From the IMG/VR virus record IMGVR_UViG_3300045988_018328: a stretch of DNA of 22,956 nucleotides, one strand, 5' to 3'. Origin of the DNA: a virus. Taxonomy: Duplodnaviria; Heunggongvirae; Uroviricota; Caudoviricetes. The position numbers and the translations under genes are program-made. Numbering within the stretch: position 1 is the stretch's first letter; every line of letters begins with the position of its first letter. Positions 1,099 through 1,413 of this stretch are shown here, piece after piece. The notes under the pieces are model-generated. The model had not been told where the DNA came from, did no database searches, and saw only the letters and a program-made list of their open reading frames with translations.

Positions 1099-1106
1099 GG
1101 TTTGTA

Positions 1107-1144
1107 ATTACCAAGTGGAGTGCTTATATTTACCTTTGCGGTAA
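1107..1144. promoter_or_regulatory. Operator-like site upstream of the ant leader: half-site ATTACC (1107-1112) and palindrome TTACC-TTTGC-GGTAA (1130-1144)
   Basis: Third instance of the TTACC-N5-GGTAA palindrome, sitting 27 nt upstream of the structured element at 1171. Confidence 0.55.
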
Positions 1145-1170
1145 ATTTACACCGCACTCCTCTTGTGCCA

Positions 1171-1257
1171 TAGTAATCGGGCACTGGCAAAATCCAGTGC
1201 CGGGATTGGCGTCCCGGATTACTAAAAGGCGCATTCACCGCGCAAGCGGTTTTTTTA
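1171..1257 (+). ncRNA. Candidate structured RNA / leader attenuator: three-way junction followed by an intrinsic terminator
   Basis: Outer 8-bp stem TAGTAATC (1171-1178) pairs with GATTACTA (1217-1224). It encloses hairpin GCACTGG-caaaat-CCAGTGC (1181-1200) and hairpin CGGGA-ttggcg-TCCCG (1201-1216). Then comes the terminator ACCGC-GCAA-GCGGT (1237-1250) with a T7 run (1251-1257). Confidence 0.3.
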
Positions 1258-1413
1258 TGCGTATAGCACGGCCACATTCGTATTATGGTGGGCTGTGTGG
1301 GGGCACCGAAAGGTGCGCCGGGTCCTTTTAGCCGGTTACGCCAACCCTGCACAGTTCACCACCAACCGATTGGCGTCGGTAGTGGTGATTAACCAGACTA
1401 AAAGGTAACCACT

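Follow-up and report, generated by a model that had tools for sequence, protein, structure and literature searches.

Genomic Setting and Organization of the Leader

The window in this study, which means the whole stretch of 22,956 nucleotides that was analyzed, comes from a phiV10/epsilon15-like E. coli prophage, in which the regulated gene downstream of the leader is a Bro-N antirepressor gene, ant. Upstream of the leader is an ORF of 85 amino acid residues (841-1098), for which a Pfam search found no family match. This ORF and its LexA box are common to epsilon15-like relatives. No terminator was present between the stop of the ORF at 1098 and position 1237. A tail fibre gene adjoins the cassette in the window. 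In the record of phiV10, the region is labeled solely as a "putative rho-independent terminator". The features of the leader and of ant are as follows.

1130-1144, no strand: operator-like palindrome TTACCTTTGCGGTAA, directly 5' of the -35 hexamer
1146-1174, plus strand: sigma-70 promoter of the cassette, with -35 TTTACA (1146-1151) and -10 CATAGT (1169-1174)
1171-1224, plus strand: Y-shaped fold of the earlier note, an 8-bp stem (1171-1178/1217-1224) around two hairpins
1181-1256, plus strand: IsrK-type small RNA of ~76 nt (Rfam RF01394, 77.9 bits, gathering score 50, model positions 1-77 of 77)
1181-1200, plus strand: hairpin 1 (GCACUGG/CCAGUGC, loop CAAAAU)
1201-1216, plus strand: hairpin 2 (CGGGA/UCCCG), whose loop contains a1
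1206-1212, plus strand: site a1 (TTGGCGT), complement of the C4 junction
1222-1229, plus strand: site b1 (CTAAAAGG), in a single-stranded linker
1229-1243, plus strand: anti-terminator-like hairpin (GCGC 1229-1232/GCGC 1240-1243)
1237-1256, plus strand: intrinsic terminator with a 5-bp stem, a GCAA loop and U7
1281-1366, plus strand: C4 antisense RNA (Rfam RF01695, 77.7 bits, gathering score 45, model positions 1-87 of 87)
1287-1363, plus strand: predicted mature C4 of 77 nt, with ends taken from alignment to the 77-nt c4 feature of P1
1324-1331, plus strand: b' (CCUUUUAG), in the loop of C4 hairpin B
1338-1344, plus strand: a' (ACGCCAA), the single-stranded C4 junction
1366-1379, plus strand: small hairpin (CCGA/UCGG) that holds site a2 (TTGGCGT, 1370-1376)
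1380-1414, plus strand: hairpin UAGUGGU/ACCACUA, which encloses b2 and reaches the A of the start codon
1398-1405, plus strand: site b2 (CTAAAAGG), over the Shine-Dalgarno sequence (AAGG) of ant, 8 nt before the ATG
1414-2109, plus strand: ant, encoding an antirepressor-type Bro-N protein of 231 amino acid residues (Pfam Bro-N, 2.3e-21; PHROG 130 "anti-repressor Ant", 2e-62)

An earlier note, made from the letters of the window, had described this leader as highly structured and had read it as either a small RNA gene or an attenuator. Structure prediction bore out the first point, as the whole of 1160-1420 folded with a z of -5.6 and the hairpins in the leader with z values of -4.4 to -5.3. 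Both alternatives of the second point were partly right. Positions 1181-1256 matched the Rfam isrK family over its full length, and the possible role of an attenuator is considered below. The effector, the C4 RNA at 1281-1366, had escaped that reading, and it is the most strongly structured element of the leader. The isrK and C4 matches are in tandem, 24 nt apart, and both exceed their gathering scores by a wide margin. A scan of 16 other phage loci, Gifsy-1 and APSE among them, showed isrK followed by C4 in every one, and in P1 a c4-a1b1 match is followed by C4. At 1168-1220, the window also matched RF03163 (c4-a1b1) with 45.1 bits, slightly below the gathering score of 46.7. Beyond isrK, C4, and c4-a1b1, no Rfam family matched 1099-1413 at E <= 10.

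Other contents of the leader were also considered. A tRNA- or tmRNA-like gene was ruled out, since the only match of ARAGORN was a tRNA-Arg at 19268. ORFs at 1065-1331, 1285-1392, and 1295-1408 as well as those of the minus strand were examined for protein coding, which was also rejected. The ORF that begins at 1285 had no match in Pfam and failed on conservation. It runs from an invariant AUG to 1392 (35 amino acid residues) and stops 21 nt before the ATG of ant; among the homologs, its length ranged from 8 to >49 codons and amounted to 14-15 codons in those clades whose variants of this cassette are closest to that of the window.

Operator-Like Palindrome and Promoter

The operator palindrome recognized in the earlier note was found at 1130-1144 (TTACCTTTGCGGTAA) and remains a predicted operator. 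Perfect copies of TTACC-N5-GGTAA occur five times in the window, the others at 750, 2175, 18931, and 21747, and all are promoter-proximal. When up to two mismatches were allowed, there were 24 matches, compared to 6.4 expected, and none of 100 shuffles reached 24. The C1 operator Oc4/Op51 of P1 has an analogous position but a different sequence.

The promoter next to the palindrome matches the hexamer consensus at 9 of 12 positions and has a 17-nt spacer and a TG at 1166-1167 (extended -10). In the MAFFT alignment A1, its hexamers align with those of the annotated P1 promoter P1c4/P51b (TTGACC/TATAGT) and with TTGACA/TATATT of Gifsy-1, whose +1 was fixed by mapping the published mutants. Transcription in the window would thus be predicted to start at about 1181. 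No promoter-like site was found from 1175 to 1413, nor was any found on the minus strand in 600-2300.

IsrK-Type RNA and Its Terminator

The IsrK-type RNA consists of hairpin 1, hairpin 2 with a1, a linker with b1, and the terminator. IsrK of Gifsy-1 is an experimentally characterized sRNA of ~77 nt (Hershko-Shalev et al., 2016; PMC4825925). Covariation was assessed with 56 homologs, including those of P1, Gifsy-1, Stx phages, SfV, and APSE, aligned in A1; the kinship among these sequences causes shuffle controls to overstate significance. Hairpin 1 was paired in 98.5% of the cells, with two-sided changes in 6 of its 7 pairs, and hairpin 2 was 97.5% paired.

The terminator with a GNRA loop and seven T's, which had been placed 12 nt after the Y-shaped fold, was confirmed at 1237-1256 (z = -3.3). 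Its stem and loop are ACCGC-GCAA-GCGGT (1237-1250) and its T-run covers 1250-1256; with about -8 kcal/mol it is weak. Each of the 19 sequences that were compared has a hairpin followed by a U-run, and the stems are of at least five different sequences. Experiments on Gifsy-1 showed that its IsrK terminator leaks and that read-through yields the antirepressor mRNA (PMC4825925).

An alternative hairpin, the formation of which excludes the terminator stem, overlaps the 3' end of b1. It was found in every isrK-type homolog with arms such as GCGC/GCGC, GGCA/TGCC, GGCG/CGCC, GAGC/GCUC, and CGCG/CGCG, and across all of them its 5' arm shares 1-4 nt with b1. The summed stabilization was -74.2 kcal/mol, compared to -35.9 +/- 7.9 kcal/mol for shuffled sequences, and none of 1000 shuffles reached the observed value. 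The alternative hairpin is absent from P1. The conserved anti-terminator over b1 hints that C4 may also tune read-through. The suggestion of an attenuation switch that controls read-through into ant is therefore supported in part, by this conserved hairpin that competes with the terminator and by the leaky precedent of Gifsy-1; what it lacked was the C4 effector.

C4 Antisense RNA and the Start Region of ant

The C4 RNA has a closing stem of 16-17 bp around hairpin A (1303-1316) and hairpin B (1317-1336) and folds with -45.6 kcal/mol (z = -4.7). Its 3' end has an ACC tail followed by an A, next to an acceptor-like stem. Among the 56 homologs, the closing stem was 99.8% paired and the other two helices were 90.7 and 85.7% paired. 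The closing stem had compensatory changes at 4 pairs and hairpin A at all 5, whereas hairpin B had none. C4 of P1 is a substrate of RNase P and stops translation at the ribosome-binding site; statements in this study on the mechanism in P1 are based on the feature table of the P1 record, on reviews, and on general knowledge. By analogy, C4 of the window would be cut out by RNase P as an RNA of ~77 nt and would repress ant.

The hairpin at 1380-1414 was 90.8% paired, and one of its pairs alternates between AU (26 sequences) and GC (19 sequences). Within it, GUGGUGA (1382-1388) can alternatively pair with UCACCAC (1356-1362) of the C4 3' arm. This alternative helix was 99.7% paired, and its three compensatory pairs all come from P1 alone.

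Target Sites of C4 and Their Covariation

The sites are named by the convention of the P1 GenBank features, in which the loop of C4 is b' and its junction is a'. The APSE record LR794147 uses the reverse, with a' for the loop and b' for the junction. The recurrence of GATTGGCGTC in the leader had been noticed earlier, and exactly two copies exist in the 22.9 kb of the window. The first is at 1204-1213 as described, but the second is at 1368-1377 and not at 1364-1373, a difference of 4 nt. Nor is GATTGGCGTC a generic motif, as its two copies hold the C4 target sites a1 and a2 (TTGGCGT). The earlier note had missed another repeat, CTAAAAGG, which is found at 1222 and again at 1398 and has its reverse complement at 1324. 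The sequence of the C4 loop that pairs with the CTAAAAGG sites is CCTTTTAG, and the predicted duplexes of b' are -10.4 kcal/mol with b1 and -9.2 kcal/mol with b2.

The upstream and downstream sites covary with C4. Across the 56 sequences, the a sites were 98-100% paired with a': a1:a' was 99.7% paired without any one-sided change and a':a2 was 98.2% paired with almost none, and in both helices 5 of 7 pairs had compensatory changes. Slid controls were 31-54% paired. The arms of the a2 hairpin vary yet stay complementary (CCGA/TCGG, TGA/TCA, GAG/CTC, GAAA/TTTC, and CGA/TCG). The columns of the b sites were 83-88% paired in A1, where they are imperfectly aligned. Because indels blur the counts from this alignment, the b sites and the terminator were judged by searches of each sequence. 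Among 18 representative loci, there were 8 different a' heptamers and ~15 different b' loops, and in nearly every locus both the upstream and the downstream sites were exact complements at constant positions. The b1 site covaried with b' in 17 of these 18 loci. Moreover, the a and b types re-assort independently among the 18 loci; for instance, the b type of locus L075 is CCACUUAG and the a type of locus L037 is GUGCAAA.

The Y-Shaped Fold

The earlier note had also described a compact Y-shaped fold at 1171-1224. The 8-bp stem and the two hairpins are present in the sequence, but the stem is not a conserved RNA helix. It was 95.9% paired in near-identical epsilon15-like relatives, compared to 43.3%, the level of chance, in 13 divergent homologs. 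Of the base pairing for which covariation had been proposed as a check, the helices of IsrK and C4 and the pairings of the a sites showed compensatory changes and the b sites covaried with C4, whereas the closing stem of the fold was at chance outside its clade. The 5' arm of this stem shares positions with the -10 hexamer (1169-1174) and precedes the predicted transcription start, and therefore the main transcript probably lacks the stem. This overlap and the split between close and divergent homologs ruled out the three-way junction as a feature of the family.

It is quite improbable that the fold is itself functional, for example only in SOS-induced transcripts from the LexA-controlled upstream ORF, in which it would mask b1 partly, through an overlap of 3 nt, and alter the action of C4. 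Its stability speaks for such a role (-27.4 kcal/mol, z = -5.3, and none of 200 shuffles folded as well), as do the intact stem in 95.9% of the cells for the epsilon15-like relatives, the LexA box and ORF that these relatives share, and the lack of a terminator between the ORF and the cassette. Within the clade, however, compensatory changes were few, and one-sided changes break the stem, at its innermost pair in 18 of the 56 sequences. In addition to the chance-level pairing outside the clade, the -10 hexamer accounts for the conserved 5' arm and b1 for the conserved 3' arm.

Comparison with Known Systems

The part order of the window, all on a single strand, is the same as in immI of P1/P7 (P51a/b, Op51, a1/b1, c4, a2/b2, icd, ant1/2). 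The order shared with P1 is an operator, a promoter, the a1 hairpins, b1, a hairpin with a U-run, a C4 of 77 nt (the predicted length in the window) with one site in a loop and one in a junction, a2, and b2, which covers a Shine-Dalgarno sequence. The two systems can be aligned directly at the promoter hexamers and at C4, and with the same Rfam model C4 scored 68.8 bits in P1, compared to 77.7 bits in the window. The specificity sites differ between P1 and P7, and likewise among the relatives of the window. Different from P1, in which icd is located between C4 and ant, the window has no icd; no ORF was found between b2 and ant, which starts 8 nt past b2, and b2 is on the Shine-Dalgarno sequence of ant itself. 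Neither translational coupling nor Rho-dependent termination, on which P1 depends, applies to the window. The upstream RNA of the window has a full isrK score, a clear terminator, and an anti-terminator, whereas that of P1 has a weak hairpin with U5 and no anti-terminator. Finally, Ant of the window is a Bro-N protein that is unrelated to Ant1 of P1, an ANT/KilAC protein (PF03374; BLASTP E = 0.11).

The isrK locus of Gifsy-1 (IsrK, orf45/STnc1160, and anrP; Hershko-Shalev et al., 2016; PMC4825925) had an isrK score of 79.3 bits, compared to 77.9 bits in the window. The a1, a', and a2 heptamers of the two are identical (TTGGCGT/ACGCCAA), and the spacing of the terminator, the anti-terminator, and the C4 homolog is the same, with an antirepressor-type gene ~50 nt past C4. 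The proven helix "b-I" of Gifsy-1 is the a1:a' pairing. The b specificities differ, however (CGGUGA in Gifsy-1 and CCUUUUAG in the window). The leader ORF of Gifsy-1 has 45 codons and overlaps the start of anrP, whereas that of the window has 35 unconserved codons and ends 21 nt short. AnrP is an ORF6N protein, different from the Bro-N protein of the window. The Gifsy-1 cassette is in the nin/Q region and that of the window is beside the tail fibre gene. As Ant of the window is unrelated to Ant1 of P1 and AnrP of Gifsy-1, its role as an antirepressor is based on family annotation.

The APSE phages of Hamiltonella have the same triplet as the window, with an annotated isrK sRNA, a C4 sRNA, and a BRO-N gene (LR794147; Rouil et al., 2020; PMC7313666). 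Their public record already annotates a'/b', and their a and b specificities differ from those of the window. In the immunity system of P4 (CI RNA, seqA, and seqC), a processed RNA derived from the leader also pairs with sites upstream and downstream on its own transcript. P4 acts by transcription termination, whereas the target in the window includes a Shine-Dalgarno sequence; this is a likeness of mechanism, and no homology is claimed. The comparison with P22 immI that had been drawn for the window was the wrong one. The small RNA sar at the translation start of P22 ant also holds antirepressor synthesis down (PMC12197685), but sar is a cis-antisense RNA of the opposite strand, whereas C4 shares the strand of its target, from a position 5' of it, and uses two short discontinuous sites. 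An Rfam search of both strands at E <= 10 found no match to sar, and the homologous systems are c4 of P1/P7 immI and isrK of Gifsy-1.

Positions 1130-1413 are thus very probably a same-strand RNA immunity cassette before ant that is homologous to c4 of P1/P7 immI and to the isrK locus of Gifsy-1. From 5' to 3', an IsrK-type small RNA with its terminator is followed by a P1-type C4 antisense RNA directed at the ribosome-binding site of ant. This type of system is real but already known.

Proposed Mechanism and Alternatives

For the window prophage, where transcription starts, how efficiently it terminates, how the RNA is processed, and how ant is repressed are proposed by homology with the characterized systems. 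Judged from the alignment with mapped promoters, the promoter at 1146-1174, beside the operator-like palindrome, would start transcription near 1181. Most transcripts would end at the weak terminator (1237-1256), giving an IsrK-type RNA of ~76 nt; membership in the IsrK family is the demonstrated part of this step, and the leakiness of the terminator is presumed from Gifsy-1. The transcripts that read through would carry C4, which may be excised as an RNA of ~77 nt (1287-1363), as RNase P does in P1. Pairing of b' with b2 on the Shine-Dalgarno sequence and of a' with a2, 25 nt upstream, would then block ribosome loading, so that no Ant is made. For this repression step, the complementarity and the three-way covariation were observed directly. 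Because the IsrK-type RNA has exact copies of both target sites, it may compete for C4 and, when abundant, would relieve the repression, as the Gifsy-1 genetics at a1:a' suggests. Finally, we infer that C4 on nascent b1 would block the anti-terminator and favor termination, a feedback on the read-through into C4 and ant for which the effect of P4 CI on termination is a precedent (PMC4825925).

The published experiments on Gifsy-1 bear on these steps. The mutants G28A/C162U and G31A/C159U (PMC4825925) fall exactly on pairs between a1 (26-32) and a' (158-164). IsrK provided in trans raises anrP translation >100-fold, and a1 mutants lose this effect (PMC4825925). Binding of Hfq, like this activation in trans, is known solely for IsrK of Gifsy-1 (PMC4825925). 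In Gifsy-1 lysogens, IsrK and a processed downstream RNA of ~80 nt (STnc1160) are abundant. Mutations of a1 in cis also raise basal anrP translation (PMC4825925). This result is unexpected if IsrK is purely a decoy, and the authors explained it by a conformational switch in cis together with a coupled leader ORF (PMC4825925). Moreover, constitutive STnc1160 left the toxicity of IsrK unreduced (PMC4825925), which argues against a simple role of C4 as a termination factor. It is possible, though we hold it tentatively, that IsrK and C4 are halves of one widespread modular circuit of three RNAs (a target mimic, an antisense RNA, and a target), in which a1/b1 coevolve with C4 and with the ribosome-binding site of the antirepressor gene and in which the anti-terminator makes termination responsive to C4.

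Less likely than not is attenuation like that of P4 CI as the main control, in which C4 on nascent a1/b1 would force termination at 1237-1256 and the IsrK-type RNA would be a by-product. The conserved and covarying anti-terminator, whose 5' arm overlaps b1 in all isrK-type homologs, agrees with it, and in addition to the CI RNA precedent the same possibility was raised by the authors of the Gifsy-1 study (PMC4825925). Under pure attenuation, however, a2 and b2 would be superfluous, yet they are equally conserved and covarying, with b2 on the Shine-Dalgarno sequence; C4 represses in P1, which is without the anti-terminator; and constitutive STnc1160 failed to counteract IsrK in Gifsy-1. Attenuation is probably an added layer and not an alternative. 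A switch in cis of the kind published for the homologous Gifsy-1 locus, where it is supported by mutations (PMC4825925), seems unlikely for the window. In such a switch, a1/b1 would pair with a'/b' in the mRNA, IsrK would open this structure in trans, the leader ORF (orf45 in Gifsy-1) would be translated with ant coupled to it, and C4 would not be a free repressor. The invariant AUG of the ORF at 1285-1392 and the conserved alternative pairings near the C4 3' arm and the ant start fit this reading, but the ORF is unconserved in length and, ending short of the ATG of ant, has no overlap of the ATGA type found in Gifsy-1. Moreover, the position of b2 over the Shine-Dalgarno sequence of ant itself and its covariation with b' fit direct antisense masking as in P1, and Gifsy-1 does make a stable RNA of ~80 nt by processing.

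It is hardly credible that the hairpin with its T-run merely ends the transcript of the upstream 85-aa ORF while ant has a promoter of its own and the other structures are non-regulatory, the scenario that the earlier note had named as contrary to its proposal. This reading accords with the annotation in phiV10 and with the lack of a terminator between 1098 and 1237, but a conserved promoter is located between the ORF and the hairpins and no promoter-like site follows it before ant. The genes 5' of the cassette also differ widely: the same cassette is found behind quite different upstream genes in Stx phages, SfV, APSE, and Gifsy-1, and a chromosomal copy of E. coli has different flanking genes as well. 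Together with the strong Rfam matches and the covariation, these comparative data already contradict it.

Implications

For the window, the value of these results is mainly a correct annotation: two regulatory RNAs that would decide antirepressor synthesis, a decision that probably affects the silence of the prophage. The ~230 nt that encode them are left blank or annotated only as a terminator in the records of phages and RefSeq. The cassette is present in ~17%, or roughly one in six, of complete E. coli genomes, and the annotation gap is therefore large.

The link between IsrK and c4 may be under-recognized, because the Gifsy-1 study of 2016 mentions neither P1 nor c4 (PMC4825925) and a review of 2025 enters IsrK and c4 separately, as unrelated (PMC12197685). 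The c4-a1b1 family of Rfam and the annotation of APSE have already put pieces of IsrK and C4 side by side. The position of the Gifsy-1 mutants on a1:a' and the anti-terminator at b1 lead to a simple reading of the IsrK system as a decoy plus C4. If the circuit of three RNAs is real, the "orf45/STnc1160" of Gifsy-1 would be a C4 RNA, and the c4 paradigm of P1, the model of a "dual-function IsrK/orf45" in Gifsy-1, and P4-like attenuation would merge into one. The a and b types look like a code of heteroimmunity, such as the one that separates P1 from P7. Finally, the cassette is portable, as the antirepressor-type proteins that it drives belong to three families without relationship to one another, ANT/KilAC, ORF6N, and Bro-N.

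Identification of RNA families in the leader

The leader upstream of ant (1099–1413), for which an earlier note had proposed a small RNA or an attenuator, is a member of known RNA families, and its tandem arrangement of isrK and the C4 antisense RNA is already found in public annotation. Judged against the curated Rfam thresholds, isrK and C4 were both matched, and c4-a1b1 was a near miss. No other family, including sar, was matched in the Rfam scan of the leader, and the tRNA search found none there. The a1/b1 and a2/b2 sites are the upstream and downstream targets of the complementary C4 segments a′ and b′.

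Features of the leader
1146–1151, + strand, −35 hexamer TTTACA (promoter scan)
1166–1174, + strand, extended −10 TGcCATAGT (promoter scan)
1168–1220, c4-a1b1 (RF03163), 45.1 bits against a threshold of 46.7
1181–1256, + strand, isrK (RF01394), full-length, 77.9 bits against a threshold of 50
1206–1212, + strand, a1 TTGGCGT, in the loop of hairpin 2
1222–1229, + strand, b1 CTAAAAGG, complementary to b′
1281–1366, + strand, C4 antisense RNA (RF01695), full-length, 77.7 bits against a threshold of 45
1324–1331, + strand, b′ CCUUUUAG, complementary to b1 and b2
1338–1344, + strand, a′ ACGCCAA, complementary to a1 and a2
1370–1376, + strand, a2 TTGGCGT, loop of a small hairpin with CCGA/UCGG arms
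1398–1405, + strand, b2 CTAAAAGG, containing the Shine-Dalgarno sequence of ant, 8 nt upstream of the ATG (1414)

Counting its complement, CTAAAAGG occurred three times in the whole window, all three in this leader. The decamer GATTGGCGTC, described as recurring in the earlier note, was present in exactly two copies at 1204–1213 and 1368–1377, the second 4 nt from the position first assigned to it. Both copies hold the TTGGCGT complementary to a′, so that the repeated decamer is the a1/a2 pair.

Sequence inspection also confirmed the palindrome TTACCTTTGCGGTAA at 1130–1144, the Y-shaped fold at 1171–1224 with two hairpins within an 8-bp outer stem (−27.4 kcal/mol, z = −5.3) and, starting 12 nt after it, the terminator ACCGC-GCAA-GCGGU with its run of seven T. 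Overall, 1160–1420 folded far better than its shuffles (z = −5.6), and its strongest structure was 1281–1366 (−45.6 kcal/mol, z = −4.7), which had previously gone unnoticed. The 8-bp closing stem was not conserved: 95.9% of cells were paired in near-identical relatives versus 43.3%, the chance level, in 13 divergent homologs. Its 5′ arm (1171–1178) overlaps the −10 hexamer.

The promoter hexamers aligned with the annotated P1c4/P51b of P1 and with TTGACA/TATATT of Gifsy-1. Placing the Gifsy-1 +1 at the start of the Rfam isrK match put every published mutant position on the expected base; by homology, transcription in the window would start at ~1181. No promoter-like site was found by the promoter scan between the terminator and ant. 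Much like the C1 operator at the c4 promoters of P1, the palindrome adjoins the −35 hexamer. Perfect TTACC-N5-GGTAA palindromes were found at five positions and a copy with one mismatch at 21729–21743, the perfect ones all being promoter-proximal. They are reminiscent of the P1 C1 operators and may form a candidate dispersed operator set.

TTACC-N5-GGTAA palindromes in the window
750–764, upstream of the ORF with a LexA box
1130–1144, upstream of the isrK/C4 cassette
2175–2189, upstream of a small membrane-protein ORF at 2216
18931–18945, upstream of a TTGACA promoter-like site preceding tRNA-Arg
21729–21743 and 21747–21761, two copies in tandem immediately before the small terminase gene

Covariation among homologous cassettes

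The covariation analysis proposed in the earlier note did reveal base-pairing covariation when pairs were counted in an alignment of 56 distinct homologs.

Pairing in the aligned homologs
a1:a′, 99.7% of cells paired, two-sided changes in 5 of 7 pairs
a′:a2, 98.2% of cells paired, two-sided changes in 5 of 7 pairs
Hairpin 1, 98.5% of cells paired, compensatory changes in 6 of 7 pairs
C4 closing stem, 99.8% of cells paired, 4 pairs with compensatory changes
C4 hairpin A, compensatory changes in 5 of 5 pairs

One-sided changes were almost absent from the two a helices, whose pairing fell to 31–54% when the partner was slid by 1–3 columns. A second, alignment-independent search of 18 individual loci distinguished 8 a′ heptamers and ~15 b′ loops. 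In nearly all of these loci, upstream and downstream sites both matched their own a′ and b′ at fixed positions, except for a2 of SfV and b1 of Nil2. Moreover, the a and b types re-assort: one locus (L037) shares b with the window and differs in a, and another (L075) shares a and differs in b, as expected of specificity determinants like those separating P1 from P7. Every sequence shown had the terminator, and its stem took at least 5 different forms. The leader feature is real and functional-looking, and covariation supports it well.

The hairpin 1 loop was nearly invariant outside one variant. In L055 and two identical loci, the hairpin tip is exactly inverted, from GGCAAAATCC to GGATTTTGCC, at the equivalent of window 1188–1193; either the loop sequence is dispensable or that copy is defective.

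Comparison with P1 and Gifsy-1

The window shares its plan with P1, whose GenBank record gives the order operator Oc4, promoters P2c4 and P1c4, a1, b1, c4 (77 nt), a2, b2, icd, and ant. In P1, the single-stranded junction of C4 is the partner of the a sites, and the loop of the second C4 hairpin is that of the b sites. Alignment with P1 predicts a 77-nt mature C4 at 1287–1363. Its predicted end has an acceptor-like stem and an ACC tail followed by A, consistent with processing of the P1 type, in which RNase P processes C4 according to the literature. Different from P1, however, the window lacks icd, and b2 covers the Shine-Dalgarno sequence of ant instead of that of icd.

In Gifsy-1, the IsrK terminator is leaky, the isrK-orf45-anrP read-through mRNA is untranslated, and IsrK in trans increases anrP translation >100-fold (PMC4825925). 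The IsrK mutations G28A and G31A abolish the trans effect, and C162U and C159U compensate for them (PMC4825925). We found a C4 match (RF01695, 69 bits) on the minus strand of the Gifsy-1 locus (34131–34214), exactly at orf45/STnc1160, which on sequence grounds is a C4 antisense RNA homolog. G28 and G31 are the G residues of a1 (UUGGCGU, 26–32) that pair with C162 and C159, respectively, of a′ (ACGCCAA, 158–164). Thus, the experimentally proven Gifsy-1 helix is the a1:a′ pairing. A processed RNA of ~80 nt has been reported from the orf45/STnc1160 position, and lysogens contain abundant IsrK and STnc1160 in every condition tested. The Gifsy-1 paper mentions neither P1 nor c4 (PMC4825925), and a 2025 review lists IsrK and c4 as separate entries (PMC12197685).

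An ORF from the invariant AUG within the C4 leader has 35 codons in the window, stops 21 nt before ant, and ranges from 8 to >49 codons among homologs. Because it ends short of ant and varies in length, coupling of the orf45 type is unlikely in the clade of the window. In SfV (825–1661), Hafnia phage yong2 (988–1671) and L092 (1128–1790), where this AUG happens to share the frame of ant, the annotation has a single long CDS that spans isrK and C4 and continues into the antirepressor gene, under the labels "immunity region," "Ash family protein," and "hypothetical protein"; these are probably over-extended gene calls. Ant of the window is a Bro-N protein with no relation to Ant1 of P1 (ANT/KilAC) or AnrP of Gifsy-1 (ORF6N), which makes the RNA cassette a portable module.

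Proposed mechanism

Family membership, architecture and three-way covariation of the cassette were established. By comparison with P1, C4 would be excised from read-through transcripts and would mask a2 and b2, the latter with the ant Shine-Dalgarno sequence, blocking ant translation. By analogy with Gifsy-1, the terminated IsrK-type RNA, carrying exact copies of both sites, would bind the same C4 segments, and when abundant it would relieve the repression. A simple decoy, however, does not explain why a1 mutations of Gifsy-1 derepress in cis (PMC4825925), an observation that leaves a cis-switch model as a less likely rival. In all isrK-type homologs, but not in P1, bases that overlap b1 or immediately follow it can pair with the loop or 5′ arm of the terminator to form a short alternative hairpin (1229–1232/1240–1243 in the window). 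Its arms vary by lineage with complementarity kept, and its summed stability was −74.2 kcal/mol versus −35.9 ± 7.9 kcal/mol in shuffles (0 of 1000). We suggest that C4 bound to b1 would preclude this anti-terminator and favor termination, a feedback like that of the P4 CI RNA, which the Gifsy-1 authors also raised as a possibility (PMC4825925). The hairpin lends some substance to the attenuation switch of the earlier note, with C4 as the probable signal.

Neighboring elements

An 85-aa ORF (841–1098) is preceded, at a distance of 22 nt, by a perfect LexA box, CTGTATAAATATACAG (804–819). This ORF, located immediately before the RNA-controlled ant and not separated from it by a terminator, is a stand-alone paralog of the Bro-N Ant C-terminal domain; the two are 43% identical across 74 aa (E = 3e-16), and both match phrog_450. 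Its product looks like an SOS-controlled mini-antirepressor or Ant antagonist. The hairpin CGGCACAGGGATGTGCC with a GGA-containing loop (2117–2133), 8 nt past the ant stop codon, showed a weak partial RsmV match (13.4 bits, E = 0.5) and may serve as a terminator or as a site of the CsrA type. Similar to Gifsy-1, where tRNA-Arg is near the isrK locus, the prophage contains a tRNA-Arg (anticodon TCT, 19268–19344). In Nil2, a full-score sRNA-Xcc1 match (2325–2408, 79.3 bits) separates the antA fragment from the antB fragment and is located ~0.9 kb downstream from the isrK/C4 cassette; sRNA-Xcc1 has likewise been reported in some APSE phages (PMC7313666).

Distribution and annotation

The window, an E. 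coli prophage, is of the phiV10/TL-2011b-like (epsilon15-like) type. In phages of this type, the leader is 98–100% identical and either unannotated or annotated just as "terminator." P1 has c4-a1b1 followed by C4; every other locus scanned (Stx phages, Nil2, SfV, 2H10, Hafnia and Klebsiella phages, APSE-2/-7, PhiR12_1, and Gifsy-1) has isrK and C4 20–25 nt apart, directly before an antirepressor-type gene. The public record of APSE-7 has isrK, C4 and the antisense regions annotated upstream of a BRO-N gene (PMC7313666). Matches were found in 941 of 5426 complete E. coli genomes, 454 at ≥80% coverage, and these copies are usually unannotated. Many genomes have 2–3 copies or variants. The E. coli MCJCHV-1 chromosome carries an identical leader and ant cassette (L095, 2501–3470) in a neighborhood unlike that of the window, with a truncated "antirepressor N-terminal domain" pseudogene adjoining it and another "antirepressor Ant" gene nearby; no ncRNA is annotated at the cassette in that record. 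The cassette type is already known and common, and its value lies mainly in the gap in annotation, a reading that unifies IsrK with C4, and a candidate C4-responsive anti-terminator.
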